Virus record (IMG/VR): IMGVR_UViG_3300010399_000002
Location: 32,001-96,000 of that record
Strand: one strand, 5' to 3'
DNA length: 64,000 nucleotides
Source of the DNA: a virus
In this document: piece after piece, positions 45,591 through 63,494 of the stretch
How the letters are laid out: each line of letters begins with the position of its first letter
How positions within the stretch are numbered: the first letter of the stretch is position 1
The notes under the pieces: model-generated
Database searches by the model: none
The model's input: only the letters and a program-made list of their open reading frames with translations
Told to the model about the DNA's origin: nothing
Translations under genes and position numbers: made by a program

Positions 45591-46229
45591 CTAATGATAA
45601 AACTTAGCCCTGCAAACCACTCTCGCGATCTCCAAAGCTACTTGATCTGAATGGTGCTTGACCATATGGTTGGAAACACGAAGCAACTTGTAACCGGCGT
45701 CCTTGAGCCTCTTGGTACGAAGCACGTTGCGATCTGTCCCTACGCAATCGTCAACCTCCAACGCAACTTTGTACTCGTACAAATAAAAATCGACGATCAC
45801 TCCAACAAGTGGCACTTGAAACCTGTATCTTATATGCAACTCTTGGAGGATCTCTTTTGTCAGAGACTCTGATAGCGTTGGATTGCGTCTGTAAAATTTT
45901 GCTTGGGACCTGTCTAATCTAGCTTGGTGTTCTCTACTCTTTACCTTACCGCGATGCGCTGCACTCATCTTACGCTTAGACGCCGATGAATGCTTCTTAC
46001 CCAAATGCGCTGCACGCATCTTTTGTATGGATACAGCACTGTGTCTCTTGCCGAAAATGGCTTCGCTTAGCTTTTTCCTGGTAGCAGCTGAAACCACTTT
46101 TCCACGATGAGTCTCACTAATAGCTTTGCGATGCTCAACAGAAATCAACTTACCGCGATGCACTTCACTCATCTTGGCACGGTACTCGGGATTCTCCCAA
46201 CGCTTCTTTAACTCTCCGGATCTGTTCAC
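45591..46229 (-). CDS. NUMOD3-repeat + Vsr/DUF559-like endonuclease (HEG-like E)
   Basis: 17-aa (R/K)K(M/L/I)S..H.GK..S repeats; PTLSE..IRYRFQ..GVIVDFYLYEYKVALEVD..GYKLLR. Confidence 0.8.
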   Translation of the reverse strand: MNRSGELKKRWENPEYRAKMSEVHRGKLISVEHRKAISETHRGKVVSAATRKKLSEAIFGKRHSAVSIQKMRAAHLGKKHSSASKRKMSAAHRGKVKSREHQARLDRSQAKFYRRNPTLSESLTKEILQELHIRYRFQVPLVGVIVDFYLYEYKVALEVDDCVGTDRNVLRTKRLKDAGYKLLRVSNHMVKHHSDQVALEIARVVCRAKFYH

Positions 46230-46267: not shown

Positions 46268-46702
46268 TCATCCACCGTTTACGGCTGCAATGCTGTTGAA
46301 AATGCTGATTCCGACATTGACGCCTAAAACGTTATCGACAGGCGCGTCAAATTCGTGGCGCATCACTTGGCCTTCGAAAGTCAGGTTGCCTGCGGCACTC
46401 GGAAACAGTACCTGCATATCCCTGGTCAGAAGGTTGACCATCAGATACCACAACCCGGTAGCGAACGCGTGCAGAGCGTCGGCTGGATCATAGTTCATGG
46501 GGAACGTGATTTCACCTGGATCGATCAGGACGGCCAGCTTCTTTCTCCAGTACCCCAAAACCGAGTGCGTAGTAATGTCTACGATCTCGGCAGTGGTTGA
46601 TGGTCCGGAAATTGACCTCACTTCACCGACCGTGCTGTAAACTGGCGGGCTGGCCGTGCTCCCGATGCGGAACAGAGTGTTCTTTGCAGAAAAAATCGCC
46701 AT
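46268..46702 (-). CDS. Major tail tube protein
   Basis: VGEVRSISGP.TTAEIVDITTH..L.DPGEI.F.MNYDP..F.G.V. Confidence 0.88.
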   Translation of the reverse strand: MAIFSAKNTLFRIGSTASPPVYSTVGEVRSISGPSTTAEIVDITTHSVLGYWRKKLAVLIDPGEITFPMNYDPADALHAFATGLWYLMVNLLTRDMQVLFPSAAGNLTFEGQVMRHEFDAPVDNVLGVNVGISIFNSIAAVNGG

Positions 46703-46704
46703 GG

Positions 46705-47187
46705 TTAAGCTCCTCTCTGAATGACTGGTAGTGGCTCCTTGTATCTGGGTAGCCGATTGTGAATGTTGGCTAGATTCACCAACACCTGAAAAATGCGCTT
46801 GGCACGCTTACATAAAGCGGCCTCCTGCACTCGTGAAATCTCGTGGTTCAACAGCAGTCCATATGGATTGACCGCGCGCACTTCTTCTTGGATCTCATGT
46901 AGAAGCCTCGTAGCCTCGATCAGTGGCTGCGGAACTGCGTGCATAGAACTACAAACATCGATGAGGATCGCAATCCTTTCGGGTGATGGATCGAAGCCTG
47001 CACGCTTCGAACTCATTTCATAGTTTTCGAGTAGTATCCTGGCTGCGTGCAGCGACGCGGCTGTTGGACGATAGCCGATTTGCTTGAGCTTGTGTATCCC
47101 GGAAGCCCACATGGAGCCTCCAAGACGCAACTCGTTGGCTATATGATTGTGCAGTTGATCTGCTTCTTTTAGAAGCTTGTTCTCCAC
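46705..47187 (-). CDS. Hypothetical protein
   Basis: 160-aa helical ORF. Confidence 0.55.
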   Translation of the reverse strand: MENKLLKEADQLHNHIANELRLGGSMWASGIHKLKQIGYRPTAASLHAARILLENYEMSSKRAGFDPSPERIAILIDVCSSMHAVPQPLIEATRLLHEIQEEVRAVNPYGLLLNHEISRVQEAALCKRAKRIFQVLVNLANIHNRLPRYKEPLPVIQRGA

Positions 47188-47197
47188 AAAAACCTCA

Positions 47198-47464
47198 CTA
47201 GTCGAATTTGATTGGTTGATTCAGATGGTTAAATAGCACATTCACTGGTGGAGCTCCCGTTACTCCGGTCTGTCCCATCCGACTGTGCATGGCCTCATGT
47301 CTGGTGATCTCGTGGATGTTGTAGGTATCGAAGCCACAACCAACACGACACTGATACCTGGGTTGACCTTCCCACAGAAAATCCGGTTCCCGCCCGGTAG
47401 TATTCTCCGGAACTGCTTTGGCGTCAACTGGGGAAGGCTGAACGTTTCTTTCTGCTTCACTCAT
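47198..47464 (-). CDS. C2H2 zinc-finger-like small protein
   Basis: YQCRVGCGFDT......RHEAMH; start MSEAE. Confidence 0.55.
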   Translation of the reverse strand: MSEAERNVQPSPVDAKAVPENTTGREPDFLWEGQPRYQCRVGCGFDTYNIHEITRHEAMHSRMGQTGVTGAPPVNVLFNHLNQPIKFD

Positions 47465-48108
47465 TGCCACTTCTCCTTTATCCAAGACTCGTAACACTCG
47501 TTGGGCTTTGGTTTGCCGTGAAAGCACACTACCTTGGCGTCATTTGGTGGACGACCTTCTTTACGGCAGTGTGTCTTGTAGCTGGCAATCCAACCTGCTG
47601 GCCAGAACGACAACTGATCTGGCGCTACAACCTTTGTCATCCATTCCTGATCTCCCCAGAATTTCTTTGGGACCTCGGCTGTGAAACTTGTCCACACCTG
47701 AGGTAATGATCCGGTCTCCAAAAGATAGCATGCACTATTGAGATACTGCGGCCTTAGCCAATCGTAGGTCAGTACCAACGGTCCTGAGCTCTCGAACAGA
47801 TGATCTAATGGTCCGGTTATAACAACATCTAGATCAAGAACTAGAACTCGCCTCGCTAGCGAAGTAGCCTCGGGCTTGAATACTGCTAACTTGTTCCACC
47901 AACCTGAAAGACCCGGTTGTAACGGAAGATATGAACACTGTAATCCGTATGGATCGTCGGTTAGACAGATGAAAGAATAAGGCAATGACAGATTCCGACG
48001 AACCATGGACGCAAGACGGTTAGCATACTCGAATCCGTACTTTGGTCCCCACTTGATACAAACGACTGCTAGGTCACTCAAAACAGCATTCTCCTCATGC
48101 AATAGCAC
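47461..48108 (-). CDS. GT8-like glycosyltransferase
   Basis: VCIKWG.KY..EY.NRL..CLTDD..WWNKL..LDLDVVI..GDQ..FHG.PKP. Confidence 0.85.
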   Translation of the reverse strand: MLLHEENAVLSDLAVVCIKWGPKYGFEYANRLASMVRRNLSLPYSFICLTDDPYGLQCSYLPLQPGLSGWWNKLAVFKPEATSLARRVLVLDLDVVITGPLDHLFESSGPLVLTYDWLRPQYLNSACYLLETGSLPQVWTSFTAEVPKKFWGDQEWMTKVVAPDQLSFWPAGWIASYKTHCRKEGRPPNDAKVVCFHGKPKPNECYESWIKEKWQ

Positions 48109-48123
48109 CCTCTAAGAACCTGT

Positions 48124-48204
48124 CTAGGAACTCGCAGGCACTATCGACAGATACCAAATGGTAGTTGAATAGGGTTTTTGTTACTCAGGACGTTGTAGAG
48201 GCTG
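48124..48204. repeat. Dispersed conserved element, copy 5 of 6
   Basis: ctaggaaCTCGCAGGCACT-N15-ATGGTAGTTGaatagGGTTTT..; 27 bp (48182-48208) identical to copy 2 (11224-11250). Confidence 0.9.
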
Positions 48205-48212
48205 CTACACTT

Positions 48213-49076
48213 CTACACTACGCCATATAAATTCAAACCGATAAAGTGACCTGGCCCGTACGCATCCATCAAGCGCTTGCATTCTTGTTCTTGCCATACT
48301 GGGCGATCTCCGATGTCTATGTACTTCATGAGATCTTCGTAACCGGTCCACCAAGTCGGATGCACCGAAGATACTGCGACGTTTGTTTCGTCTATAGCCT
48401 GATGGTACTTTCGATCTACGGCATCGACTGTCTCACGATCGGGCCACCTCACACGTTCTGTCATCTTATACAAAGCGTGCTTGGCCTTCAGACGCCGGCG
48501 ATTGACAAACTGCAAGTGCATCACACCGCCTGAATTACTGAATGGTCTGTGTTGTGCAATAGTAGAACCAAATGGATGGCGATGATGGAAGTCGTACCCG
48601 GCCCTGGTCTCCCATCTCAACGTAGGATGATCTTTAAATACTGTTGACAACCAAACACGAGACCAAACTGATCTGTCTGACCGATAGAACTCGAGACTCT
48701 TCCAACAAGCTGGCATCCACGCCTCGAGAACCAAACCTGGTGTCAGCTTTTCGGAAGCATCTCGAATCACTGGTAGAAGATTGTTAGTCAGAACCTCGTC
48801 TGCATCCACGATAGCAAAATGCGTTCCACCTGCAGCTCGACCCGCGTCTAGCATCCGTTGGCGGTATTGCATCTCGAACCAGACAGCGTTGTCTTCTCGG
48901 ATGCGAATAAGCTTACCTGGATATTCGGATTCGATCTCAGATAGGATCTCGGAAGTACGATCACTGGAAGCATGGTCGAAGACTACTAACTTGTCGCACC
49001 ACTTCAAAGCTACACGAGCAGTAAGACCTACAACCCAGTCTTCGTTACGGCACAGCATCAAACCGACTAGAAACAC
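48213..49076 (-). CDS. GT2-family glycosyltransferase
   Basis: CRNE..VVFDHASSDRT..IVDADE. Confidence 0.85.
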   Translation of the reverse strand: MFLVGLMLCRNEDWVVGLTARVALKWCDKLVVFDHASSDRTSEILSEIESEYPGKLIRIREDNAVWFEMQYRQRMLDAGRAAGGTHFAIVDADEVLTNNLLPVIRDASEKLTPGLVLEAWMPACWKSLEFYRSDRSVWSRVWLSTVFKDHPTLRWETRAGYDFHHRHPFGSTIAQHRPFSNSGGVMHLQFVNRRRLKAKHALYKMTERVRWPDRETVDAVDRKYHQAIDETNVAVSSVHPTWWTGYEDLMKYIDIGDRPVWQEQECKRLMDAYGPGHFIGLNLYGVV

Positions 49077-49086
49077 AAATGCTCCT

Positions 49087-49758
49087 TTACATCCCTTGAG
49101 TAACGATCACTGTCTCCGGATCTGGAACTGGTGTGCAGTAACTAAAGAACTTCGGACAGTACGTGGACTTCATTCCCAACTTGTAACTGATGATAGATGC
49201 GGCGGGTTGGTCGTGCCTGTGCCCGAGCACTCGCGGATCTTCGGATACGAGTCTGTTCTTGTTTGTCCATTGGCCTACAAACGTTCCTCGATCAGCGGCT
49301 TCTTTCCACAACCTCAAGAACTTCAAGCTACGTTCGTCTTTGAGGTACAAGCAAACACATCCACCTATCACCAACGAGATCTTGAAAGCCTCTTCTCGAC
49401 TGGTACCAAGAATCCTCAACGCATGGTCGGTACACCACTGCCCAACGCTCCAACCGCAAGTAAACAACAGATACCCGCTGCGTTCTACTTCTTCGATCAT
49501 TGACTCCAATGGTCGGATAGCCCAACAGGAAGCATCGAGCCATATAACCAAATCGTGACCTTGTCTAACGGCTTCATACAACGCATAGACTTTGAACGCA
49601 TACGGATTCTGTTGGTGGGATAAGCACCCGACGGGATACTGATTCAGGCCTAGAAACGCTCCTTGGTAACCTTGCGCTTTCAAACTGGATCGCAACCGTT
49701 CCTGTCCGCGCAGATACCAGCCCCGACTAGTAGCGAAACTGACTACACATGGACTCAC
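49087..49758 (-). CDS. Nucleotide-diphospho-sugar transferase-like protein
   Basis: YAFK..IWLDAS..GHRHDQ. Confidence 0.72.
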   Translation of the reverse strand: MSPCVVSFATSRGWYLRGQERLRSSLKAQGYQGAFLGLNQYPVGCLSHQQNPYAFKVYALYEAVRQGHDLVIWLDASCWAIRPLESMIEEVERSGYLLFTCGWSVGQWCTDHALRILGTSREEAFKISLVIGGCVCLYLKDERSLKFLRLWKEAADRGTFVGQWTNKNRLVSEDPRVLGHRHDQPAASIISYKLGMKSTYCPKFFSYCTPVPDPETVIVTQGM

Positions 49759-49759
49759 T

Positions 49760-50203
49760 TTACTTTACTGCATTACGCAATATAGAACCCAACCTCCTGG
49801 CCTCAGAAACTGTACCTGGCAACTTTCCTTCCGACACTGTACCGCCGTGCTTGTCTTTCAGTTCCCAAAAATTCTCTTCACGACCTGGTCCTGTGGATAA
49901 GCGTAACTTATGACCGGAGCTGTGCTCAAAGTTTGCTATTGACTGCGTAGCTGTACCAGAACCTTGTTCTTGAGTTGCCTTATGCCTAAAACCTGCATCT
50001 TTCGCTTCCCTACGAACTTCCATTGCACGACCACGATGACCTCCAGCTATTTCACCGCCAATTTTCCCTGCACCACTACCTCCTCGTACTCCAAAACTTG
50101 CTCCACCTCCGCCACCAGATGAAAACTGACCTTGAGTGTCGTGATGGGGATTGAACTTGGCAACACGCTGTTGGAGGCTTTTGATGCGTTCTGATGTAGT
50201 CAT
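49760..50203 (-). CDS. Small protein with KFNPHHDxQGQFSS leader
   Basis: N-terminal module shared with 50989..51297, then a Gly linker. Confidence 0.7.
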   Translation of the reverse strand: MTTSERIKSLQQRVAKFNPHHDTQGQFSSGGGGGASFGVRGGSGAGKIGGEIAGGHRGRAMEVRREAKDAGFRHKATQEQGSGTATQSIANFEHSSGHKLRLSTGPGREENFWELKDKHGGTVSEGKLPGTVSEARRLGSILRNAVK

Positions 50204-50985
50204 AGGCCCTCCTGATCTCGGTCTGGAACGTTTCGATATGCACTACCGATGGTTGGATCTTTTACGCCACCTGGCGTTCCTATCTGTTCGAACAGTTGCG
50301 GATACAAATCCTGGTCTTGCGGCTGGTCTCTTCCGTACTGGCACGCTTCTCGATACAATCTGTACCCATACCGATGTGCAAGATTCGTCAAGATGGCTTG
50401 CTCGCACCGATGCTCGTGCAACTCGGGATGCTCTGGAAGTATGAGACTCGGATCAAAAGTAGTAGCTGATGGATTGACGCAGTACGTCAACCACTCCATG
50501 AGAAATTGCTGCGGCTTCCATCGACCTTTTTGGAACACAAAGAATCTGGCGACAGCGTGCTGGACATCTCGATACCGCGGCTCGTCTTGACCCATCACGA
50601 TAAAGCAATCACGCTTGCACCAGCAATTATTCCAACAGCCTACGGCATTAAACAACATGATGCCGTCTTTTTTGACTTCTTCAAACAGCACAGAGAAGTC
50701 TGCGATAGGATGCGTGTCTCCATCGGTAAACAGAATGATGTCTCCGTCTTGCACACGTGACAGAGCGTCCATCATCACATACGGCTTCCAAGCGAACCAA
50801 CCTACACCGCGGGACGCATGGTGATCCCACAACCAAGTATTGTGTCTGCGGAACTCCGTCTTACTGAGCCACAAGTCGTCGTAGACCCAAACCTCATCGG
50901 CACCCAACTTCGGAGCGTCACGAACGGTTTGACCTATAACCTCGTTATATGACGACCCGCCGAACGTGATGTAGATTTTTCTCAT
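50200..50985 (-). CDS. Nucleotide-diphospho-sugar transferase-like protein
   Basis: WFAWKP..DGDIILFTDGD..EHRCEQAIL. Confidence 0.72.
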   Translation of the reverse strand: MRKIYITFGGSSYNEVIGQTVRDAPKLGADEVWVYDDLWLSKTEFRRHNTWLWDHHASRGVGWFAWKPYVMMDALSRVQDGDIILFTDGDTHPIADFSVLFEEVKKDGIMLFNAVGCWNNCWCKRDCFIVMGQDEPRYRDVQHAVARFFVFQKGRWKPQQFLMEWLTYCVNPSATTFDPSLILPEHPELHEHRCEQAILTNLAHRYGYRLYREACQYGRDQPQDQDLYPQLFEQIGTPGGVKDPTIGSAYRNVPDRDQEGL

Positions 50986-50988
50986 GTA

Positions 50989-51297
50989 CTAAGCTGTTGT
51001 GCGCTGCAAGTCGGAAGACTGATAATTGCCCGAAGTACCGTCTTTGAATCTGACTATATGGAACTCACCGGATGGAGCTGAAGTAACAATCTTGCCGTGT
51101 TTACCTTTACCTTTAACTGGACCTTTAACCTTAACCGAATCCCCTTCGGTCAACTTACTCCCGAACATGCGAGCGCTGCCTCCACCACCGCCACTAGAAC
51201 TAAACTGTCCCTGCGCATCATGATGGGGATTGAACTTGGTTAGCAGAGACTCAACTCGATCGTTGAGCTGTACAATACGCTCACTTGTCATTTGCAC
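50989..51297 (-). CDS. Small protein with KFNPHHDxQGQFSS leader and KOW/SH3-like domain
   Basis: LTEGDSVKVKG..KGKHGKIV..HIVRF.DG..Y..SDL. Confidence 0.7.
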   Translation of the reverse strand: MQMTSERIVQLNDRVESLLTKFNPHHDAQGQFSSSGGGGGSARMFGSKLTEGDSVKVKGPVKGKGKHGKIVTSAPSGEFHIVRFKDGTSGNYQSSDLQRTTA

Positions 51298-52037
51298 ACT
51301 CCAAAGTCAAAATTCATACTCGCACGTCTAGCAGCAAATGCCTCTTTGTGCGCTGGATCTGATACATGGTCTGGGGGCTGGAAATCGCCTCGCCAACAGA
51401 CCGCTACCATTTGTGGTGTATCGTAAATACGACAGTGCATCCCACCTGTACCGTGGTCTTGCAAAAGATACTTGACCGCCTCTAACACCGGACCGCCGAA
51501 GTCGTGAAACGCAATCACACCACGTGGTCTCAATCTCGATAACGCGAACTGGGCATCCAACTGTGGTACCGGAGAATCGTGGTCACCGTCAATAAAAACC
51601 CCGTCGAAGAAATCCTGATCCCCGATAACGGAATACTGATCTGATCGAAGAGCGACAGGGTGAAGTATAGCAGTGTCTGCCTTAGCATTGGGGGCATCGT
51701 ACTGACGCACGTTATCCATGTTCTCCAACCACCGCTCAAAGAACGCACGCTCTCTCAATCTTGGCTCAAGCATCAATACACTACGCACACCGGTCAGGTG
51801 GGCGATGTGCGCACCGCTCCAACCAGTTTGACTTCCGATCTCGAGCCAGTCGCCTTTAATCCTGTGAGCGATCTCCCAAAGTATAGCAGCCTCGTCGGCA
51901 CTGATCCAACCGGGCACTGGTGGAAAGTCCGGATCACAGAGGATCTCATGATCGTAGCCTACTACGATTGGTTGTGCATGTACGAAACAGGACCTAAGAT
52001 CTGGTCCGTGGATAAGATTAGAACGATAGTTATACAT
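51288..52037 (-). CDS. Class I SAM-dependent methyltransferase
   Basis: LEIGSQTGWS; VFIDGDH; L.P.GVI.FHD. Confidence 0.85.
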   Translation of the reverse strand: MYNYRSNLIHGPDLRSCFVHAQPIVVGYDHEILCDPDFPPVPGWISADEAAILWEIAHRIKGDWLEIGSQTGWSGAHIAHLTGVRSVLMLEPRLRERAFFERWLENMDNVRQYDAPNAKADTAILHPVALRSDQYSVIGDQDFFDGVFIDGDHDSPVPQLDAQFALSRLRPRGVIAFHDFGGPVLEAVKYLLQDHGTGGMHCRIYDTPQMVAVCWRGDFQPPDHVSDPAHKEAFAARRASMNFDFGVCK

Positions 52038-52040
52038 GTC

Positions 52041-52658
52041 TCACTCGGCAAACCAACAATCATTACACGGCAGCGGTACTGTTGGAAGTATGGTCTTCCA
52101 ATCGATCTGTGGCTCTAACGGTGTAGCAGTTGGAATCCCCGGGCCTACGCAACAGCCGAAGAACTTCCCGTCGGCATAGGCGCACCCGTCAGAAATGAAA
52201 CACGCTCTCGAACACGGCTTACCTTCTGCCCGACGGATACGCGGTACAAAATTTGCTCCGTTTGGTCCGGCATTGTACATACCGACCTTCACGCCTCGAC
52301 CTAACAGTGCGTTCAACGCCTGGTGGTTATCGCCGTAGTCACTAAAGTCTACCCAGGTAAAATGTTCGACAATGGTATCCAAATGCGCTATCACCCGATA
52401 ACCGTTCGTGTTCATGGTCAGCGTCGTACAACCGAACAACTCTCTGAACCTCGGTACGAACTCAGCGAACTTCGGATGTGCTGTTGGTTCTCCACCTGTT
52501 AAATTGATGCGTTCGATGCCTTGCAACCATTTGGCAGCAGTCTCAAAGTACGACCAATCATGGTGGCCTAGCACTCGATTGATGCCTACACCCGCGCAGC
52601 AATCGGGACAACGCTTGTTACAATGCGTCGTCAGATCGAGATTGACTGTATGGATCAC
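52041..52658 (-). CDS. Radical SAM protein
   Basis: CNKRCPDC; LTGGEP; TNG; C-terminal Cys cluster (C..GCC..CNDC). Confidence 0.88.
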   Translation of the reverse strand: MIHTVNLDLTTHCNKRCPDCCAGVGINRVLGHHDWSYFETAAKWLQGIERINLTGGEPTAHPKFAEFVPRFRELFGCTTLTMNTNGYRVIAHLDTIVEHFTWVDFSDYGDNHQALNALLGRGVKVGMYNAGPNGANFVPRIRRAEGKPCSRACFISDGCAYADGKFFGCCVGPGIPTATPLEPQIDWKTILPTVPLPCNDCWFAE

Positions 52659-53239
52659 GGCATGGCCAGAATCAGATTGTTACCGTCGTAGTACGGACAG
52701 ATGTAACCTAACCCGGTAGCAATCTGTAAGATCTCACCTTCATGGTGATCGTGCTCAACGCATATGCACTTCGGTCTCATAGCTGCCAACGGAAAGCGCT
52801 TGAACAATTCAGTTGACGTGCCCTCTGTATCAATACTGATGAAATCGAAACCGCCGAACTGATTGAGAATCTGCTCGACAGTAATCTGCGGTACCCAGAA
52901 CCGACCGGTAAAGTCTGCATGAGCTTTCCACTTCTCGTAGTTCTCGTCCTGAGTAGTAGATATGGCATCGGGACTGTTATAGAACTGGATTAGACTCTGA
53001 TCTAAACCCACGGCTGCCATGATCAGCGACAACTTATCGTTGCCTCGATGTCTATCCGACAGTGCCATGAACGCATTGGGAGACGGTTCGATGAGAACTC
53101 CACCCCAACCTCGCTCGACCAATGCTAATGTATTGGAAAAGGTCTTACCATCGAACGCTCCGATATCGAGAAACCTCCCGACATGGTCTCCGAAAATTTC
53201 CAGGATAACCTTCTCTTCACCTTTTTGGGAATATGGCAT
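52655..53239 (-). CDS. FkbM-family methyltransferase
   Basis: YSQ.GEE; FLDIGAFDG..SNT..L..GW.GVLIEP; FISIDTEG. Confidence 0.88.
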   Translation of the reverse strand: MPYSQKGEEKVILEIFGDHVGRFLDIGAFDGKTFSNTLALVERGWGGVLIEPSPNAFMALSDRHRGNDKLSLIMAAVGLDQSLIQFYNSPDAISTTQDENYEKWKAHADFTGRFWVPQITVEQILNQFGGFDFISIDTEGTSTELFKRFPLAAMRPKCICVEHDHHEGEILQIATGLGYICPYYDGNNLILAMP

Positions 53240-53243
53240 TTTC

Positions 53244-53918
53244 TTATGCACTGTAGTTACTGTTCCGTAACAGCAGATTATAGTCAAACTCCTTTACGAT
53301 CTCCCAACCTGGAAGCATAGCCAACAACTCCGCACGGTTGGCCTGTCCTTCGTACATCTCATGGTCGTCGGCTTCGATGAACAAGTAACGCGTTCTGCTT
53401 AGAGCCTCTCGGCCACCTTCAATCACATCTCGTTCGGCACCTTGCACATCCACCCAAAGCAACTCTACCTTTTCGAGTTTCTCGGTCTCATACAGATTGT
53501 CCAACGTAACGCATTGCACCTCAACGGTCTTCGGAAACGTACACCAGGGAAAGAACTCGAGATGCTTCTTCGGCTTCCGAATTGAACTGCTAGCTGTTCC
53601 ATAACCGATCTCGTTCTCACACAGGTGTAATTCAATTGTACCTGAATGAGCTGCAACAGCAGCCTCGTAGAAGTTTGTAATACCGTTGAAACCGTTCTCG
53701 CGAATATAATCGGCGTTACGCGGATCGGGCTCTAGAGCGATGTATCTTCTGGCGTGAGGACTCATCCAAGCTGCGTCTTCGGCATGGAAGGTTCCTAACT
53801 CCACAACAGTTGGCTTGTCTGCGGCCTTCAGAATCTCAATGATAGCTTGCTGTATGTCGGACACCAGCTGCTGCTCGAGAGTAACCTCTGCAACTTGATC
53901 TACAATTTCCTCTTGCAC
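53244..53918 (-). CDS. FkbM-family methyltransferase
   Basis: VELG; LEPDP; SSSI..P; TLD; LLWVDVQGAE..V..G; YEGQ. Confidence 0.88.
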   Translation of the reverse strand: MQEEIVDQVAEVTLEQQLVSDIQQAIIEILKAADKPTVVELGTFHAEDAAWMSPHARRYIALEPDPRNADYIRENGFNGITNFYEAAVAAHSGTIELHLCENEIGYGTASSSIRKPKKHLEFFPWCTFPKTVEVQCVTLDNLYETEKLEKVELLWVDVQGAERDVIEGGREALSRTRYLFIEADDHEMYEGQANRAELLAMLPGWEIVKEFDYNLLLRNSNYSA

Positions 53919-53928
53919 CGTTTCACCT

Positions 53929-54480
53929 ATGTGTTATGATTCGATTATGATCTACAAAAAAGTGAGACCTAAATTCGACTTGACCGGGCAACGCTTTGGA
54001 CGTTTAGTTGCTCTTGGAGCTGTTGGACGGAGACCTAACGGGATCGTTTGGAAATGTAAATGTGATTGTGGCAAAACAACTTCTGTTCCGGCCTGCAATC
54101 TTAGGTGTGGCGGAACTAGAAGTTGTGGATGCTTGAAACACGAACTGCTAGTCTCTGCAAATCCTAATAGGTCTCACGGCCTCAAATGGGAAATTGCCTC
54201 TAACAAACGACTGCGACAAGTATACCACGCATGGGTTAGTATGAAACAACGTTGTCACAATCCAAAAAATGCAAACTACAAACAGTACGGCGCACGAGGC
54301 ATTTACGTCTGTAAAAAGTGGCGACATGACTTCGTTGCGTTTCTAAAAGATATAGGACTCCCGCCCAAACGCAAATTGACTATCGACCGTTTAGACAACG
54401 ATGGTCCTTATGAACCTGGCAACTGTTCTTGGGCTACACCGTTTGCTCAAGGTCAAAACCGGCGGACAAAACAGACTTAA
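53929..54480 (+). CDS. Free-standing HNH-type homing endonuclease
   Basis: DLTGQRFGRL..WKCKCDCG..SCGC..MKQRC.NP..YGARGI.VC..W..TIDRLDN..YEPGNC.WAT..Q..N. Confidence 0.88.
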   Translation: MCYDSIMIYKKVRPKFDLTGQRFGRLVALGAVGRRPNGIVWKCKCDCGKTTSVPACNLRCGGTRSCGCLKHELLVSANPNRSHGLKWEIASNKRLRQVYHAWVSMKQRCHNPKNANYKQYGARGIYVCKKWRHDFVAFLKDIGLPPKRKLTIDRLDNDGPYEPGNCSWATPFAQGQNRRTKQT

Positions 54481-55156
54481 GTAATGGCTCATGCCCTGGA
54501 AATCCTGCTGCTGCGCGTTGTTCGAATAGTGCTCTAGCTGACGACCAATCCAATCTAGCCTCACTCAAATGAGGAGGCCTCTTCCCACCTTCGCGCATCC
54601 AATGATGGTGATATTGGCAAATATCCTTAGCGTGTCTTAGCACTCCGAGCTTCAACGCAACCTCATGAAGTTCTTGATCGACAAAAAAATGCAACCAACC
54701 TGGCCACAGAGGACCTTGGCCTCCATACATACGCTCGCAGAACTCACGACCGATCCATGGTGAAGAACACACCCGCTCTTCGGATGACTTGCCGTTCTCA
54801 ATCATCCAACGATCACCTGTCGGTTGCATGACCCCGAATGTACCGTTGAAGTTCTTGAAGAACTTCGCCTCCAACTCTTTTGGATCACGCCTTGGATCTG
54901 GATCGATGTCGTCCCCGCCTGTTACGATGATACTTATGGATGGATCTTTGAGAACGATCTTACACAACCAATTGACTGACTCGGCGTAACCTGTATATGG
55001 ACGATACAGAACGAGATCTGCATCTACCTCCGGTTCTCCAACCTTTTCGGGATCTCGATGGACTGCTACACCGTAGCCTAGTTCTCGCCATTTGTGCAAA
55101 CACACATTAGCTTCGGCAACTGGTCTAGCTGAAGGTATGCAATACCAAACACTCAC
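54434..55156 (-). CDS. GT-A / GT2-like glycosyltransferase
   Basis: IPSAR; IIVTGGDD; HFFVD; H.H. Confidence 0.7.
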   Translation of the reverse strand: MSVWYCIPSARPVAEANVCLHKWRELGYGVAVHRDPEKVGEPEVDADLVLYRPYTGYAESVNWLCKIVLKDPSISIIVTGGDDIDPDPRRDPKELEAKFFKNFNGTFGVMQPTGDRWMIENGKSSEERVCSSPWIGREFCERMYGGQGPLWPGWLHFFVDQELHEVALKLGVLRHAKDICQYHHHWMREGGKRPPHLSEARLDWSSARALFEQRAAAGFPGHEPLLKSVLSAGFDLEQTV

Positions 55157-55779
55157 AACGCCTCCCTAAGCACACTCGTTAGTGATTTGTACGGCCACAA
55201 CTTAAGAGCTGATTCCTTCGAAGTGTTTATAACCTCGACTCCGGCTTCTTTCAACGGCGCAACAGCGTTCTGAAAAAGTGGGAGCATGGTGTGCTCAAAC
55301 ACATTGGCATATCCAGCCTGCGTCTGTCTCACGTGCTGGTGCCCGGGGTGCCAATGTGTTCTGCCGTCGACCACTCGCATGTCTACACCTAACAGCACGA
55401 TGCGCTTGACACCGAAATGAAACGCTACCTGCATGGACTGGTACGTTCCGTTGGCTCCGGTATACAATGCACCTGGATCGTTGCTCCAGCCGATCTGTCC
55501 GGCGTTTCTCAAACGCTTAACTGCACCATCGACCTCCACCGTTGTTACGATGTATCGTCCTTCGAATGACTCCATCACTCGCTGTTTATGGTACATGTAC
55601 CATTTGGAATCTGCGAAATACAACACATCGGCGTGTGGAAAGATCTGATAACTGTTGTTGATGGCAATGACTCGACGACCAAATAGTGGACGAAGATCTT
55701 CTCGAGCTAATGAAGGACCTCCACCTAGTATGAATGCTGTCTCACCGGACCACTCTGGCGGAACCACCCAATAGGACAT
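55153..55779 (-). CDS. DUF115/Maf-like (sialyltransferase-like Rossmann) transferase, paralog 1
   Basis: ILGGGPSL..VIAINN..ADVLYFAD..GVKRIVLLGVDM..V.VINTS. Confidence 0.75.
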   Translation of the reverse strand: MSYWVVPPEWSGETAFILGGGPSLAREDLRPLFGRRVIAINNSYQIFPHADVLYFADSKWYMYHKQRVMESFEGRYIVTTVEVDGAVKRLRNAGQIGWSNDPGALYTGANGTYQSMQVAFHFGVKRIVLLGVDMRVVDGRTHWHPGHQHVRQTQAGYANVFEHTMLPLFQNAVAPLKEAGVEVINTSKESALKLWPYKSLTSVLREAL

Positions 55780-56412
55780 TTAGACTAAAACAATCTCTTC
55801 CTTGACCAGTGCTTCTTTCAAATTACAACTCGGCCAAAAAGTAAGTGCTGAACCTTCTGTGGCGTTTATTACCTCTACGCCTCGATCACGTAACGGCCCT
55901 ACCAGACTTTTGAACTTCGGCAGGAAAGTACTCGACAAAACAGCTTGATATGACTTGGCTGGTTTTCCGTGTCCTTCATGCCAATGAGTAGATTGTCCTG
56001 AAACACGCATGTCGTAGCCTAACAAAATAATTCGCTTGGCTCCGAAGTGCGCTGCAAGATGAATAGCCTGATAGCCGCTGTTGGAACCCGTTCGCAATGC
56101 TCCTGGATCTGGATCGAAGCCTGGAACACCTGTGATGCGAAGTTGCTTGACGAACTCCGGCACTCGACGAGCTACTGTAACGATGTACCTACCTCGAAAA
56201 GTCTCCGTTATGTCTCCGCACTTCTTTCGCCACCATGACTCGTCTGCAAAGTACAACACATCGGCGTATGGACACAAACGGTAACTGTCGTTTATCACTA
56301 TCACACGACAACCCTGCAAGCAACTCGCATCGAAACCGCGTAGCGATGGTCCACCTGCTAGAATCACACAGGTCTCACCGAACCATTCTGGAGGCACAAC
56401 CCAATAGGACAT
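55780..56412 (-). CDS. DUF115/Maf-like transferase, paralog 2
   Basis: ILAGGPSL..VIND..ADVLYFAD..NSGYQAI.LA..GAKRIILLGYDM; same MSYWVVPPEW start as paralog 1. Confidence 0.75.
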   Translation of the reverse strand: MSYWVVPPEWFGETCVILAGGPSLRGFDASCLQGCRVIVINDSYRLCPYADVLYFADESWWRKKCGDITETFRGRYIVTVARRVPEFVKQLRITGVPGFDPDPGALRTGSNSGYQAIHLAAHFGAKRIILLGYDMRVSGQSTHWHEGHGKPAKSYQAVLSSTFLPKFKSLVGPLRDRGVEVINATEGSALTFWPSCNLKEALVKEEIVLV

Positions 56413-56807
56413 TATCTTCGCATCATGACTCGGAACTCACAAGTCAGATTCGGCCGCTGCTTAACATCATACCAACCGATGGGTGCATCGTTAGTTGCCA
56501 TCGTGTAGATGTAAGCCCTTCCACCTAAAGTAAATGAAGCGTTGTGTAATGCTGTCCAACACTCTTGCCACTTTTCGCGTGCAATCTCGTACTCAAGTGC
56601 GCTGGCCCTGATACGCACCTGGAATTGCATCTGCGCATTGTTTGGTCCGTAAGTATCTGGAGCTGGGCCTAAGAACGGAGTCTCGTTAATTACAATTACC
56701 TGATCTGGTGTATCTGGAACTCGCGCTTTGTACAAAAGCCAACCGGTCTCCACTAAACCTGGAATCCCCAACAGGAAGGCTTCGATGTCGTTGAGTGGCT
56801 GCCCCAT
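56412..56807 (-). CDS. Tail terminator / minor tail-completion protein
   Basis: PD.PD.VI.I..FQVRIR..G.D...RP...C.F; follows the gp10-like gene. Confidence 0.75.
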   Translation of the reverse strand: MGQPLNDIEAFLLGIPGLVETGWLLYKARVPDTPDQVIVINETPFLGPAPDTYGPNNAQMQFQVRIRASALEYEIAREKWQECWTALHNASFTLGGRAYIYTMATNDAPIGWYDVKQRPNLTCEFRVMMRR

Positions 56808-56810
56808 AAC

Positions 56811-57206
56811 TTATTTACTGCGGTTTGCTCTGTTCACTGCTGCCACGATACGACGAGGAATGTTTGAAATAGCCTTAGCCAGCGGCTTAGACAAATACTT
56901 CGCTTGGCCAACTGGATGATGTGCGTTGAGGTTCTCGTGGACGATGATGGCGTAACTTACACTCGGACCGCCGTACGTTAGATCGACTTTGAAATTGGTA
57001 GGAGTGTTCTCTTTCACTGCGACTTGTCCTGTAGATCTCAAAGCGCCGGTATCCACTGGAACAAAGTCTTCTTTGGAACTTGCCATTACCTCTTCTGCGA
57101 TTTGATACAACTCGCGACGTGCTACCTGACTTGACAGATCTGCTGCGGACATGACCTTTCGCAGAACACGATCTACATTTTTCAAACTTGCGCCGGCCTT
57201 AGCCAT
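56811..57206 (-). CDS. HK97 gp10-like neck / tail-completion protein
   Basis: VPVDTGALRST..YA..VHE..GQAKYL..P. Confidence 0.85.
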   Translation of the reverse strand: MAKAGASLKNVDRVLRKVMSAADLSSQVARRELYQIAEEVMASSKEDFVPVDTGALRSTGQVAVKENTPTNFKVDLTYGGPSVSYAIIVHENLNAHHPVGQAKYLSKPLAKAISNIPRRIVAAVNRANRSK

Positions 57207-57228
57207 TGTAGCACTCGTTTGGCCCTAT

Positions 57229-57309
57229 CTGGGACCTGTCGGGCACTCATCTTGGTTATTGGATGGTAGTTGGAGATGGTTTTCGTTACTGTAACCGCTG
57301 GAGAGGCTG
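57229..57309. repeat. Dispersed conserved element, copy 6 of 6
   Basis: ctgggacCTGTCGGGCACT-N15-ATGGTAGTTGGagatGGTTTT..cgctggagaggctg; abuts the stop of 57310..57642. Confidence 0.88.
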
Positions 57310-57642
57310 CTACGCTGCTCCTAAATACACTTTTACATGGTGGTCTCCGCTCTGATCCGTCGGACGCTCCCAGTTGACTATGATTCCTAATGATTCTCCG
57401 TTCTGACTGAACTTATCGTCGAGATCAACAATAGTTGGCAAACCTAGAACCCAGATGACTGTACTAGCAAACGTGTCTGTACCTGGTTGACGAGCATTGG
57501 CTACGCGCACAGTCTTCTTAACTACGCGACAACGATACGATACGATCTCATCGTAAATAGGCTTCGTGTACTGATCTCGATCCAGAACCTTCTGGTAATC
57601 GACAGTGGCAGGACACAGAACCAACCAATCACTGGCAGCCAT
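57310..57642 (-). CDS. Head closure (stopper) protein
   Basis: Size and position; D.Y.KP.Y..CRV..H.KVYL. Confidence 0.65.
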   Translation of the reverse strand: MAASDWLVLCPATVDYQKVLDRDQYTKPIYDEIVSYRCRVVKKTVRVANARQPGTDTFASTVIWVLGLPTIVDLDDKFSQNGESLGIIVNWERPTDQSGDHHVKVYLGAA

Positions 57643-57645
57643 ATT

Positions 57646-58068
57646 CTACTCGCCTTGATTGTTGTGCATTCCAACAGTGAACGCGGGCTTGACCCGGTCG
57701 GTATCTGTCTCGTCAATCTCTTTATCCGACCTGCGAATGCCCCCTGCATAAGGAGTGGCTAGACCGAGCCCGCCTTTGGTGGTAGCCTGCATCCTTAGCT
57801 TGACCGCTAAATCGGTGTAAGCCTTTTGGCGCTGACTGTAACTTATACTCAAATCACCAATGGACTGATCTACTAGCCGCCCATACTTCGCTGCAAGCTG
57901 TTGGGCCCCTTGAGCCGCGGCATAGTAGACTGAACTTGAGTTCTCAGATAGCAACCAAGCTATCTCCGCATCGAGCAACTGCTTGTCCTTTGAATCTGTA
58001 TCGCCCAACAGAAAACGAACAGAGTCTGTTGGACTCGCTGCGGGATTACCGGAATAGGTCCAAGACAT
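57646..58068 (-). CDS. Head-tail adaptor protein
   Basis: MSWTYSG.P..D.VRFL.GDT..L.D.EI..IGDLSISY. Confidence 0.75.
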   Translation of the reverse strand: MSWTYSGNPAASPTDSVRFLLGDTDSKDKQLLDAEIAWLLSENSSSVYYAAAQGAQQLAAKYGRLVDQSIGDLSISYSQRQKAYTDLAVKLRMQATTKGGLGLATPYAGGIRRSDKEIDETDTDRVKPAFTVGMHNNQGE

Positions 58069-58075
58069 GATGGCC

Positions 58076-58627
58076 TCAAACTGGTCGAATAGCAAATTCT
58101 AGTATGCGTGGATCTTCCATACCGGACACAGTTACTACAAGCAGACTAACTGAATACACTTGGCTAGAAGTGCCGCCAGAAACTGTAACTGAAACTGTAA
58201 CACCGAAAAAAGACTCTGTGACCTTGGTTAGTCCGGATGGAAACGTCCATGTAGCACTGACTATTGGATCGACCATCCAAAGATACGCACCGCCTGCAAC
58301 GAAAGCGCCGTTACCTGCAATCGGACTGGATAGTGCTGCGTCTGCGTATAGTTCGTACGTGGTAGGACTCACGTACTTAACATATCTGAATCCGTTGGGT
58401 GACGTGTTACCCAACGACCCGGCAATGAACACCGGAGTACCGTTTGGTAAAGACGTCGGAAAGCCCTGCTTGATTGTAACAACCACTGGACTGGCATTGG
58501 AAGCGGCTGTTATGAGAACCTTTTCTCGGCCTTGAATACGAAGGAACTCAGAATAGTCGATCGTGTACGTTTTTCTGGCCCCTGCGGCCTTTTCGATGGT
58601 CGTGATGGAATCCAACAGAATAGACAT
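58076..58627 (-). CDS. Fibre-adaptor-like virion protein with inserted FCCH-like domain
   Basis: K...Y.IDY..FL [ITAASNASPVVVT..G..V.I.G..G.T..NG..TYEL] IVSATW..VSGG..Y.V..T..G..R. Confidence 0.6.
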   Translation of the reverse strand: MSILLDSITTIEKAAGARKTYTIDYSEFLRIQGREKVLITAASNASPVVVTIKQGFPTSLPNGTPVFIAGSLGNTSPNGFRYVKYVSPTTYELYADAALSSPIAGNGAFVAGGAYLWMVDPIVSATWTFPSGLTKVTESFFGVTVSVTVSGGTSSQVYSVSLLVVTVSGMEDPRILEFAIRPV

Positions 58628-58632
58628 AAGCG

Positions 58633-58851
58633 CTATGCCTTAAACTCGCGATCCTCGAATGGAACCTGTATGTTGATTGGTTCCTCTACGACAACATCAA
58701 ATATACGATCCTCAAATTGGGACACTAGTACACGATCCTCGAACGCTGCTAGCAACACCCGATCCTCAAATGGAACTTGCAGTATAGCATCGGGAACTAT
58801 TATGCCCCATTCTTGAGTGTAGGCAAAAATTCTTAGTGCTGCACCCGGCAT
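58633..58851 (-). CDS. Small protein with four FEDR repeats
   Basis: VPFEDR / AAFEDR / SQFEDR / VPFEDR. Confidence 0.65.
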   Translation of the reverse strand: MPGAALRIFAYTQEWGIIVPDAILQVPFEDRVLLAAFEDRVLVSQFEDRIFDVVVEEPINIQVPFEDREFKA

Positions 58852-60174
58852 CTAGTTCCACTTGTCTAATTTTTTACGTTTGTTGAAACCGCCACCGGCT
58901 GCAACAGCTGTACTGCCTAGCGACCCGATCCACATGAAGGTAATCGATCCACTGGTGTTTGGTGTTACAACCTTATAATTGATCTCATCTGTGCCCGAAG
59001 TGATCGTGTCCGTGTGGACTGAATCGTTCTTTAATCCCGTCTGGGCTGCGGCGTAGCTAAAAGTCTGGGTACCGTCCGCTGTGTTGTCGCGAAATGTCAC
59101 AACGGTGTCACTGGTCGCGATGGTATTGGCGGAAACGTAGGCCCCAAATTCTTTCGCCGTAAACGTGAATCGTGGCAGATACTGGGCGTTTATCTCGGTG
59201 GCGTTCTGGCTGGAAAATAGGTCGCCGCTTGGAGCATAATACCTAGTTGTGTTGAAGGATTGCGCTGTACCTGGCTGCGCATCGCTGGACTCAAGAAAAA
59301 AGGTTGAGTTAGTAGCGACAAGAGAACTAGACACGATCCGGGCGGTGATAGTGCCCGTCCCGGTGAGGGTGCGGATGAAGTAGTTATAATCGTCCCCCGC
59401 CGCCAGGGTGTCGGTATGGGTCGTGTCCTCCTTTGTGCCCGTCTGGGTGGACGTGTAGGTCACGAGCTGCGCCCCGTCCGCTCCGTTCTTGCGCGTTCCG
59501 AAAACGGTGTCAGTGGTGCGGGCGTTGGCCGATACCACCACGTTGAAATCTTGAGCTACGACGGCTGCTCTTATACGGTATTTCGTGTTTGCTTCTGTCG
59601 TAGTTACTGCTTGGCCTCCGTTCGGCGCAATGAATGTCGTAGTACTGGCTGTCGAAAAAGATAAGTTCGCACCGGCAAAAAATGTCACACAGTCTGTCGT
59701 GGTGGTCGGCGTGAACTGCGCCCCGATCTCTTTAATGATGATGTTGGTGGAGCCTGCACTGGAGCCTGTGACGATCTGCCAATCGGCCTCGTCGGTGTTG
59801 GCATAGGAGACGGAATTGGCGGTGTCTTCCTTGATCCCGGTTTGGGTCGAGGTATAGCTCACCGTCAGGGCGGTGGCTGCGCGGCTCTTGCGGAGCGTGA
59901 TGGTGGTTGTCGCTGCGACCGTGTTGGTCGGGACATAGACGTACATTTTGCTGAACGTCCCAGCGTCCCGCACCGGCTGTTCCATATTGGCTTCGGTCGT
60001 ATTCTGAACCAGCGCCCCGGTCAGTGGCGTATAGGTAGTGACCGGCTCCAACACCGTCACGGAACCGGCAGCCACCGCTAGAGACACGTCTGCCCAAGAG
60101 AGGGCAGCGTAAAGTAGCCCGACACCGAGAATATAGAAACAGCGATTCATTATGTTAGTACCACGATGATACAA
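58852..60174 (-). CDS. Thr-rich three-domain repeat protein with signal-peptide-like N-terminus (putative fibre/decoration)
   Basis: Three copies of V..N..T..T..RKN.A..Y...QTG.K.D..D; leader MNRCFYILGVGLLYAALSWA. Confidence 0.65.
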   Translation of the reverse strand: MYHRGTNIMNRCFYILGVGLLYAALSWADVSLAVAAGSVTVLEPVTTYTPLTGALVQNTTEANMEQPVRDAGTFSKMYVYVPTNTVAATTTITLRKSRAATALTVSYTSTQTGIKEDTANSVSYANTDEADWQIVTGSSAGSTNIIIKEIGAQFTPTTTTDCVTFFAGANLSFSTASTTTFIAPNGGQAVTTTEANTKYRIRAAVVAQDFNVVVSANARTTDTVFGTRKNGADGAQLVTYTSTQTGTKEDTTHTDTLAAGDDYNYFIRTLTGTGTITARIVSSSLVATNSTFFLESSDAQPGTAQSFNTTRYYAPSGDLFSSQNATEINAQYLPRFTFTAKEFGAYVSANTIATSDTVVTFRDNTADGTQTFSYAAAQTGLKNDSVHTDTITSGTDEINYKVVTPNTSGSITFMWIGSLGSTAVAAGGGFNKRKKLDKWN

Positions 60175-60189
60175 GAACCTGTGTGACCA

Positions 60190-60666
60190 TCAGTTCACAA
60201 CCACCTTGCCTACACCAAAATTTGTATCGCAGTACGTGCGGACCTGGTTCTTCTGAGCTGTGGTCAGCGTAACCCCCACCACGCTGATCTCCAGCACGCG
60301 GCTCTCACCACTGCCAGTGAATTGCCACGAAAAGACAATCCCTGGCTTGAACTCCACAGTTCCGCTTGGACCTAACTGGGTCAAACCGAAAGAGCCTGTC
60401 TCCTTCAGCAGTTTTTCCACTAGGTTCTTCCGCTTGCCCTCGCTATTGGTGTTTGCTTGGATCACTCCATAAAGTGCATTGTCTGCCACGGCTGCGTGAG
60501 CGGGACACTTGGATACTGGTACGCCGCTCCAGGTCTGCGCTACATCGTCATGGGTCTCGATGATGATGCACGCACACGTATCTGGACGCCAGCGGTATGT
60601 CCGAACGGCGGCGAAGAGAGTGAGTGAGAAAGCTAGAGCTAAGAAAAATCGTCTGGTTATTTGCAT
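60190..60666 (-). CDS. Hypothetical protein with signal-peptide-like N-terminus
   Basis: MQITRRFFLALAFSLTLFA. Confidence 0.6.
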   Translation of the reverse strand: MQITRRFFLALAFSLTLFAAVRTYRWRPDTCACIIIETHDDVAQTWSGVPVSKCPAHAAVADNALYGVIQANTNSEGKRKNLVEKLLKETGSFGLTQLGPSGTVEFKPGIVFSWQFTGSGESRVLEISVVGVTLTTAQKNQVRTYCDTNFGVGKVVVN

Positions 60667-60672
60667 AATTCC

Positions 60673-62028: not shown

Positions 62029-62069
62029 AATGGGCCTATTGACTTTGATTCTACCACTGAAGCCTCGAA

Positions 62070-62990: not shown

Positions 62991-62992
62991 TG

Positions 62993-63494
62993 TTAGGTCT
63001 CCTTGGACATACCTGCTGTCCTAATCTTCTGGTCTAGCACAATAATCTGCCCCTCGGTTTGTTCAATACGTTCCTTCTCCGCAGCAATCTTATCGTGCAG
63101 TTCTTCGACGTGTAACTTTGCCTGCTCCACCGCAACCTCGTACTGCATACGTTGGATCTGCATCCGTCGCAACTCCAACTGACGTGAACGTTCCATCCCA
63201 TTTGACTCAGCCATCTTTCTTCTCCGCCACCTCAACCGGCTGACTTGCTACCATCTCCCCTGTTTGTGGATTGATATTGTATCTGCCTGACAGTCCATAC
63301 TTCGACAACGTCTTGATGATCCAAGACTGGTAAGCTTCTTGAACCATAAGCAGATTGTGTGAAGCGGCCTGCATAGCTGCTGAACGCAAACGGAACTCAA
63401 CCAGATCTCCGGGACCCATCTTCGGATGAACAACCGGAGCAGGAACCGAAATTGGAGTTGCCTTAGACTTCTTTGCCTTGATCTTATGTCTCAC
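62993..63494 (-). CDS. Two small coiled-coil/helical proteins (62993-63214, 63207-63494)
   Basis: Heptad pattern; located among fibre genes. Confidence 0.5.

Follow-up and report, generated by a model that had tools for sequence, protein, structure and literature searches.

A glycosyltransferase and methyltransferase cluster inside the virion operon of an uncultured phage is a candidate system for virion glycosylation

The stretch of DNA analyzed here (hereafter the window, 64,000 nucleotides) covers bases 32001-96000 of IMG/VR virus record IMGVR_UViG_3300010399_000002, a complete genome of 114,732 bp with an exact 123-bp terminal repeat and nearly all genes on the minus strand. The source is an uncultured, long-tailed phage of ~115 kb, probably with a host among the Acidobacteriota. 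Between the tail terminator and tail tube genes lie eleven enzyme genes, seven encoding glycosyltransferase (GT)-like proteins, three encoding methyltransferases and one encoding a small radical S-adenosylmethionine (SAM) enzyme (Table 1). An earlier annotation of the window (the original prediction) had placed these eleven genes and both flanks correctly. It described the cluster as entirely co-oriented, which is true of the enzyme genes but inexact for the cluster, because an inverted homing-endonuclease-like open reading frame (ORF) interrupts it. That ORF, two small paralogous ORFs inside the cluster and two ORFs before the tube gene had been overlooked.

Table 1. Features of the enzyme cluster and of the surrounding late operon, in window coordinates
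Feature	Position	Strand	Evidence or remark
Maf/DUF115-like (GT42-like fold) glycosyltransferase, copy a	55780..56412	-	phrog_4603 2.4e-47
Maf/DUF115-like glycosyltransferase, copy b	55153..55779	-	phrog_4603 7e-38; 52% identical to copy a
U240, predicted 240-aa GT-A-fold glycosyltransferase, first gene of the conserved cassette	54434..55156	-	AlphaFold2 model, GGDDxxPD
FkbM-family methyltransferase 1	53244..53918	-	PF05050 2.7e-19, TIGR01444 1.2e-20
FkbM-family methyltransferase 2	52655..53287	-	PF05050 3.7e-14, TIGR01444 2.7e-13
Minimal radical SAM enzyme, 205 aa, Cys-rich C-terminal part	52041..52658	-	PF04055 36 vs 29.5 bits
Class I SAM methyltransferase (Methyltransf_24)	51288..52037	-	PF13578 6.4e-9
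A261, GT-A-like nucleotide-sugar transferase, HRxEQ type	50200..50985	-	Atlas model, invariant D88/D90
A223, GT-A-like transferase, HRHDQ type	49087..49758	-	invariant R181-H182-D183-Q184
GmaR-like GT2, closing gene of the conserved cassette	48213..49076	-	PF13704 33.2 vs 27.5 bits
GT8-like glycosyltransferase	47461..48108	-	phrog_1962 6.2e-28
Homing-endonuclease-like ORF, 183 aa, inverted in the cluster, outside the glycan function	53929..54480	+	motif pattern, mobility
Small ORF, 102 aa, N-terminal NPHHDxQGQFSSGGGG motif	50989..51297	-	paralogue of 49760-50203
Small ORF, 147 aa	49760..50203	-	paralogue of 50989-51297
Conserved ~100-bp intergenic element, two copies	48109..48212 (-), 57207-57309		direct reading of both copies
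Major capsid protein	64988-65977 (just beyond the window)		phrog_1005 1e-86
Nine ORFs including three Ser/Thr-rich proteins	58076-63976
Head-tail adaptor-like gene	57646-58095
ORF between the head-tail adaptor-like gene and Neck1	57310-57642
Neck1	56811-57206
Tail terminator, upstream flank of the cluster	56412-56807	-	PF12691 1.6e-5, 25.5 vs 23.8 bits; phrog_2595
Two small ORFs separating the cluster from the tube gene	47198-47527, 46705-47187
Tail tube protein, downstream flank	46268-46702	-	phrog_158 2.4e-11; PF16460/PF16461 below cut-off
NUMOD3/DUF559 homing endonuclease gene, inserted between the tail tube and tail chaperone genes	45591-46229	-

The core of this cluster recurs in other phages. 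A scan of IMG/VR with an alignment of U240 identified 123 relatives, 80 loci were kept, and all proteins of the genome were compared with these 80 loci by tblastn. They share one co-oriented cassette, in which U240 comes first, FkbM, Methyltransf_24, A223, A261 and radical SAM genes lie between, and the GT2 gene comes last. The GT2 family closes the cassette in 67 of the 80 loci, always in final position, and the median span is 4.0 kb. The inner genes are variable: homologues of FkbM copy 2 were found in 48 loci, A223 in 36, Methyltransf_24 in 25, A261 in 21, FkbM copy 1 and the homing-endonuclease-like ORF in 15 each, and the radical SAM enzyme in 3. Pooled PHROG matches of the two ORFs upstream of the cassettes were to major head protein, TerL, head-tail adaptor and Neck1, and those of the three ORFs downstream were to portal (17), adaptor (14), head closure (10), tail terminator (7) and major tail protein (6). 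Flanking ORFs with a PHROG match belong almost only to morphogenesis families, the informative ones being head, neck or tail. The position of the cassette therefore varies by lineage, yet always falls inside the virion module. By gene content and order, the cassette running from U240 to the GmaR-like GT2 is mobile and modular.

Relatives of the phage were found via the Maf-like gene, the capsid protein and U240, while searches via the terminator and via the tube protein gave none. Against isolated phages, neither megablast of the region nor tblastn of a 451-aa ORF returned a match. L030 (capsid protein 67% identical), L031 and L066 are nearest to this phage (L and G numbers designate the compared loci); they share the order terminator, Maf-like, U240, ..., GT2, (GT8), tube protein, with tube homologues 52% identical directly after the cassette. 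In the relatives L030, L031, L066, L027/G001, L007 and L005, whose capsid proteins are 42–67% identical, a Maf-like gene directly follows the terminator, and the glycan genes after it differ. Among the distant relatives (capsid 42–45%), G001 has the Maf-like gene and then GT8-like and FkbM genes before a PF06199 tube protein; in L007, the Maf-like gene is followed by Malectin, MT23, PIG-L and GT2 genes. A second Maf-like gene lies directly after the capsid gene in L005, L007 and L030.

U240 has 1136 homologues at E ≤0.001, none of which carries a Pfam domain, and no match among 50,697 isolated-phage records. Profile searches against PDB sequences gave two chance-level matches only for U240 (E >1) and none for A223 and A261; because they were uninformative, fold evidence was needed. 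The alignment-based AlphaFold2 model of U240 (predicted local distance difference test, pLDDT, 93.5) has a GT-A fold, with Foldseek E-values of 7e-6 to 2e-4 and VIA Z scores of 13–15 (~15 for the top match) to WrtF, PmHS2 (heparosan synthase), ppGalNAc-T2, SpsA and TarP. GGDDxxPD is invariant in the family (G81-D82-D83..D87) and supplies the DxD motif of GT-A enzymes. Comparison with the GT2 family by hhalign indicated no kinship. On this model, U240, an ORF without earlier annotation, belongs to a GT-A-fold family of >1,100 members lacking a Pfam model, an assignment that is new here. The Atlas model of A261 resembles GT2/GT34-type clusters (TM ~0.8), and the A261 and A223 families are homologous (hhalign 98.7%, E 4e-16), the HRxD/EQ motif being kept in both.

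To place U240 among cellular organisms, we used GTDB with one genome per species and obtained 25 loci, 22 of them titled Acidobacteriota or Planctomycetota; the others belong to an Armatimonadetes metagenome-assembled genome (MAG), a Thermoplasmata MAG and an unclassified bacterium. The best identities of U240 (47–48%) are to Acidobacteriota and therefore point to this phylum as host. Within it, U240 occurs in Bryobacterales, Sulfotelmatobacter and the isolate Acidobacteriaceae bacterium KBS 96, among others. In two of these loci, L111 (KBS 96, scaffold KB906767.1) and L112, the size and succession of the ORFs resemble those of a siphovirus prophage, and the cassette stands between what are presumably capsid and connector genes. 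Most of the Planctomycetota belong to Phycisphaerales; their loci (L115, L124-L130, L132 and L134) have no phage genes nearby, and U240 homologues often occur there as tandem pairs beside epimerases/dehydratases, GT4, GT2, FkbM and housekeeping genes. This suggests an origin of the cassette in host glycan clusters such as Planctomycetota still possess.

The profile of the closing GT2 had a single significant match among solved structures, the glycosyltransferase domain of GmaR (E 3.5e-6). In Listeria, GmaR transfers N-acetylglucosamine to flagellin (PMC9638930). The match covers the nucleotide-binding half and the DxD motif, with invariant D91/D93/E94 aligned with IDADE of GmaR. Both proteins are soluble and would modify a protein within the cytoplasm, but the phage GT2 lacks the TPR and antirepressor domains of GmaR and has its own conserved C-terminal part of ~120 aa instead. 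By this homology to the glycosyltransferase domain, a protein acceptor of the flagellin type is conceivable for the closing GT2. In the phage collection, this GT2 matched only five records (four Prochlorococcus phages, at 26% identity, and one marine virus).

The last enzyme gene before the tube gene, 47461-48108, had been called GT8-like. Its assignment as a glycosyltransferase stands on the PHROG match, while the GT8 label comes from an FHGKPKP motif and a weak PF01501 match in a relative's gene; the ORF itself has no match in Pfam, GT8 (PF01501) included, or among PDB sequences. L030 holds a homologue at the same place, and G001 has an unrelated GT at the equivalent place that scores 21.7 bits with PF01501 against a cut-off of 24.3.

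Both DUF115 proteins have partial PF01973 (MptE-like) matches of 28.0 and 28.6 bits, below the 34.6 cut-off, and a single-sequence PDB search gave nothing useful. The AlphaFold2 model of copy a (pLDDT 92.8) bears out the Maf-like label of the original prediction: its best structural match is Magnetospirillum Maf 5mu5 (Z 15.8, root-mean-square deviation 3.6, 190 aa), clearly above CstII (Z 11.9) and the MptE HPPK kinase (Z 11.2). The family profile matched CstII at E 0.02, with the GPS, SG and GxD motifs aligned. The phage proteins would thus share the central catalytic fold of Maf and CstII, keeping the GxGPS, SG(Y) and GxD motifs, but at ~210 aa they lack the N- and C-terminal domains of flagellin Maf (632 aa), of which the alignment spans only residues 260–514. 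From this model, both DUF115 genes are predicted to encode proteins that fold like the flagellin glycosyltransferase Maf.

Homologues of the Maf-like family occur in 79 isolated-phage records. In Pseudomonas Yuavirus phi_D3 (L136; CDS0008, CDS0013), the Maf-like gene lies between capsid and adaptor genes, with a methyltransferase gene among the neck genes. In Caulobacter phage CcrColossus (L135, gp126-131), it comes after the tail genes and is followed by two hypothetical genes and then by genes for a nucleotide-sugar transferase, a methyltransferase and GT9. Such genes in cultured phages are annotated as 'alpha-2,3-sialyltransferase' and lie within head or tail modules. The phage P1 homologue is pmgO, a gene of 'morphogenetic' role with no assigned function, on which a literature search found no paper.

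The two FkbM methyltransferases score well above their cut-offs (PF05050 70.4 and 53.6 vs 22.7 bits; TIGR01444 74.5 and 50.6 vs 37.7 bits). The family of the radical SAM enzyme comprises 87 compact proteins of ~200 aa, and 23 aligned sequences share an invariant CX3CX2C motif (C13/C17/C20), GGE (G55-G56-E57) and five C-terminal Cys. Among solved structures, the enzyme is closest to PqqE, viperin and MoaA. It had 15 NCBIfam matches, the best being MoaA and viperin fragments, and none to a QueE model, and its gene is present in the cassettes of L032, L045, L090 and L116. Because it matches no QueE model and travels with the glycan cassette, we ruled out that it is the phage's missing QueE (7-carboxy-7-deazaguanine synthase). 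A second radical SAM protein of 327 aa, encoded in the early region (genome 27982-28965; L004:7982-8965, minus), is weakly similar to the cluster enzyme across the N-terminal core.

None of the cluster enzymes has a membrane-spanning segment (maximum 19-residue hydropathy ≤1.24), so an undecaprenyl-linked, flippase-dependent surface-glycan pathway is unlikely. By the same measure, the cluster does not contain Gtr-type O-antigen conversion functions, which comprise a membrane flippase and a membrane GT (GtrA, GtrC). The absence of sugar-nucleotide synthesis genes, previously noted for the window, extends to the whole 114.7-kb genome, in which no NeuB, CMP-sugar synthetase, NTP-transferase or epimerase gene was found; the donors must therefore come from the host, in agreement with the original prediction. 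Soluble enzymes, morphogenesis genes on the flanks and the lack of machinery for alternative targets make a virion target the best supported, and since at least 80 other uncultured phages carry the cassette core amid their genes for particle assembly, a sugar coating of the virion is the most likely outcome. We therefore lean, on balance, towards the cluster glycosylating virion proteins, a best-supported but unproven reading. The complex methylated glycan originally predicted agrees with the enzyme set inside the virion operon, the recurrent cassette and the likeness to flagellin glycosyltransferases; its attachment to any virion protein stays an inference from genes.

Under virion glycosylation, the cluster would encode a late-expressed, wholly cytoplasmic line acting on one or more virion proteins with host nucleotide sugars, and its product would be an O-methylated, possibly radical-SAM-modified oligosaccharide. 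The conserved core would consist of the GmaR-like GT2 and U240, one of which would most likely attach the first sugar to a Ser/Thr of the acceptor. A223, A261 and the GT8-like enzyme may extend the chain, and the two Maf-like enzymes could add a cytidine monophosphate (CMP)-activated acidic sugar or otherwise cap it. The FkbM and Methyltransf_24 enzymes would O-methylate the sugars, and the small radical SAM enzyme would modify a sugar. Maf and GmaR modify flagellin in the cytoplasm, before this self-assembling filament subunit polymerizes. The acceptor and donors, the order in which the enzymes act and the biological role, which could be shielding, stability or adsorption, are all inferred from these genes.

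Several points weigh against this view. No glycan has been observed, and the phage is uncultured. Only a minority of the ORFs flanking the cassettes matched a PHROG, most having no match at all. We sought a shared Ser/Thr-rich C-terminal tail, as in mycobacteriophage acceptors, on the capsid and tube proteins of cassette-bearing relatives and found none. Single Maf-like homologues occur in phages that are not known to be glycosylated (P1 PmgO, Yuavirus). L025 and L026 (capsid 51%) have no cassette family between capsid and tape measure, and the cassette is therefore accessory and dispensable. Finally, the Planctomycetota homologues of U240 belong to ordinary cellular glycan clusters, so the family is not intrinsically protein- or virion-directed.

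The enzymes could instead remodel a host glycan or surface protein (lipopolysaccharide or exopolysaccharide, S-layer, flagellin, pilin) late in infection or in lysogeny, which could block superinfection or keep progeny from sticking to debris. These cellular clusters in Planctomycetota, the cassette-bearing prophages in Acidobacteriota genomes and the action of bacterial Maf and GmaR on flagellin are in line with such a target. We nevertheless consider it unlikely, given the lack of membrane segments in the cluster enzymes, the absence from the cluster of a flippase- or polymerase-type membrane protein (undecaprenyl phosphate priming transferases were not searched by family) and the location of the genes in all viral loci, amid late morphogenesis operons and not at prophage ends like typical conversion genes.

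The choice of acceptor bears on a further alternative. Three ORFs in the capsid-to-connector interval (60673-62028, 60190-60666 and 58852-60174) have 16–26% Ser+Thr and signal-peptide or twin-arginine translocation (Tat)-like N-termini, with nothing credible in Pfam at E up to 1. The Tat-like motif of 60190-60666 is TRRFFL, and L007:5802-6491, at the same place, starts with MNRRSFFSSL; a virion module does not usually encode export signals. The Ser/Thr-rich proteins at 58.8–63 kb had been suggested as acceptors on the virion, a proposal weakened by the fact that L030 keeps the cassette without those ORFs, and further by the three signal-peptide-like N-termini, which are odd for virion parts. 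These export signals, and the Tat-like N-terminus in L007, would fit an alternative in which the acceptors are non-virion phage proteins, for example the exported Ser/Thr-rich proteins at 58.8–62 kb. We regard this as quite improbable, in view of L030 and of the absence of homologues of these ORFs (E 1e-4) from all 80 cassette loci. The Ser/Thr-rich proteins are thus not obligatory acceptors. At this place, relatives encode proteins that are rich in Ser/Thr and in part collagen-like, so fibre-type acceptors are possible in some lineages.

Hypermodification of phage DNA with sugars by the GTs, as in clusters that glycosylate 5-hydroxymethylcytosine or 5-hydroxymethyluracil, is highly improbable: we know of no DNA precedent for Maf-like, GmaR-like or FkbM enzymes, the cluster radical SAM enzyme matches no QueE model, and the complete genome has no Tet/JBP (PF12851), C5 DNA methylase (PF00145) or ThyA-like (thymidylate-synthase-like) hydroxymethylase (PF00303), so the known routes to glycosylated DNA bases are unavailable. 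The DNA hypermodification clusters of Pyle et al. (10.1101/2023.12.21.572611) likewise contain GT-A as well as GT-B enzymes and sometimes adjoin structural genes, but depend for their hydroxymethyl base on a 5mYOX/TET or ThyS-like enzyme, and this genome has none.

Virion glycosylation by phage enzymes has a precedent in cluster O mycobacteriophages, in which, according to PMC11600133, which cites Freeman 2023, an O-methyltransferase and three tandem GTs modify both the capsid and the tail tube. As outlined in PMC11600133 and PMC12619734, the cassettes of cluster O and Corndog likewise consist of soluble GTs and an O-methyltransferase encoded with structural genes, likewise use host sugar donors and have the capsid and tail tube as proposed targets. 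GT and methyltransferase genes are embedded in or adjoin virion genes in those systems, as they are here. No sequence kinship with the mycobacteriophage enzymes was found (U240 had no match, and GT2 matched only the Prochlorococcus and marine records), and no Mycobacterium phage was among the 30 listed matches of the Maf-like family in isolated-phage records, nor was Mycobacterium one of the ten commonest organism names there. The present cluster is larger (seven GTs, three methyltransferases and a radical SAM enzyme, including Maf-like and GmaR-like proteins), and differs in its probable Acidobacteriota hosts and in having no visible C-terminal acceptor tail. The logic would thus be that of the mycobacteriophage systems, but with unrelated and more diverse enzymes in a cassette that is mobile and modular. 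Chloroviruses also glycosylate their capsid with virus-encoded cytoplasmic GTs bearing a methyltransferase domain, e.g. A064R, building a methylated glycan stepwise on the capsid protein independently of the endoplasmic reticulum; they differ in being eukaryotic giant viruses with N-linked glycans and unrelated enzymes.

The cluster and its surroundings hold other elements. The inverted ORF 53929-54480, which has no Pfam match (E up to 1), appears, judging by mobility and motif pattern, to be homing-endonuclease-like. The 3' ends of this ORF and of 54434-55156 overlap by 47 bases, and its homologues are multi-copy within cassettes of other loci, with four in L067. The late operon continues beyond the NUMOD3/DUF559 homing endonuclease gene with the chaperones and then a 1675-aa tape measure protein. 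The two small paralogous ORFs have nothing credible in Pfam at E up to 1; 50989-51297 is probably a morphogenesis-module protein and not an enzyme, and its L030 homologue lies among neck genes, whereas here two copies lie within the glycan cluster. Several small or head-region proteins share the N-terminal motif NP(x)HDxxG(Q/R)F(S/T)SxGGG (L030 form KFNPYHDPRTGRFTSAGG). The carriers are the two paralogues (50989-51297 and 49760-50203), genome 99661-100155 and 103370-104161, L030:364-1023 and L030:8247-8600, and the motif may be a capsid-targeting or processing signal. Each copy of the intergenic element begins directly after a stop codon and follows the pattern GTAGCAGCCTCT...CAACTACCAT...AGTGCC...CAGGT. 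Because one copy lies on either side of the block that runs from Neck1 through the terminator to the GT2 end of the cassette, a transcript boundary or late promoter is conceivable, and the element could mark either.

Collectively, we tentatively propose, with a little less than even confidence, that the cassette from U240 to the GmaR-like GT2 serves the O-glycosylation of virions and is widespread among uncultured phages of soil and freshwater, with >1,100 family members and absent from isolated-phage records. It would carry swappable methyltransferase, GT-A and radical SAM modules, be fronted by Maf-like genes in this lineage, coat capsids or tails with methylated glycans by the logic of flagellin glycosylation, and probably have been recruited from host clusters. 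Phage-encoded virion glycosylation has so far been shown only for a few mycobacteriophages. If our proposal is true, the trait would be common among environmental phages from little-studied phyla, Acidobacteriota among them, and would use unrelated enzyme families, including an uncharacterized GT-A family (>1,100 members) and also a minimal radical SAM enzyme. This has consequences for how stable phages are, how they adsorb and how they evade immunity and defence, as well as for particle design. It also offers leads on what P1 pmgO and the 'sialyltransferase' genes carried by Yuavirus and by Caulobacter jumbo phages do, leads that are open to experiments in culture.

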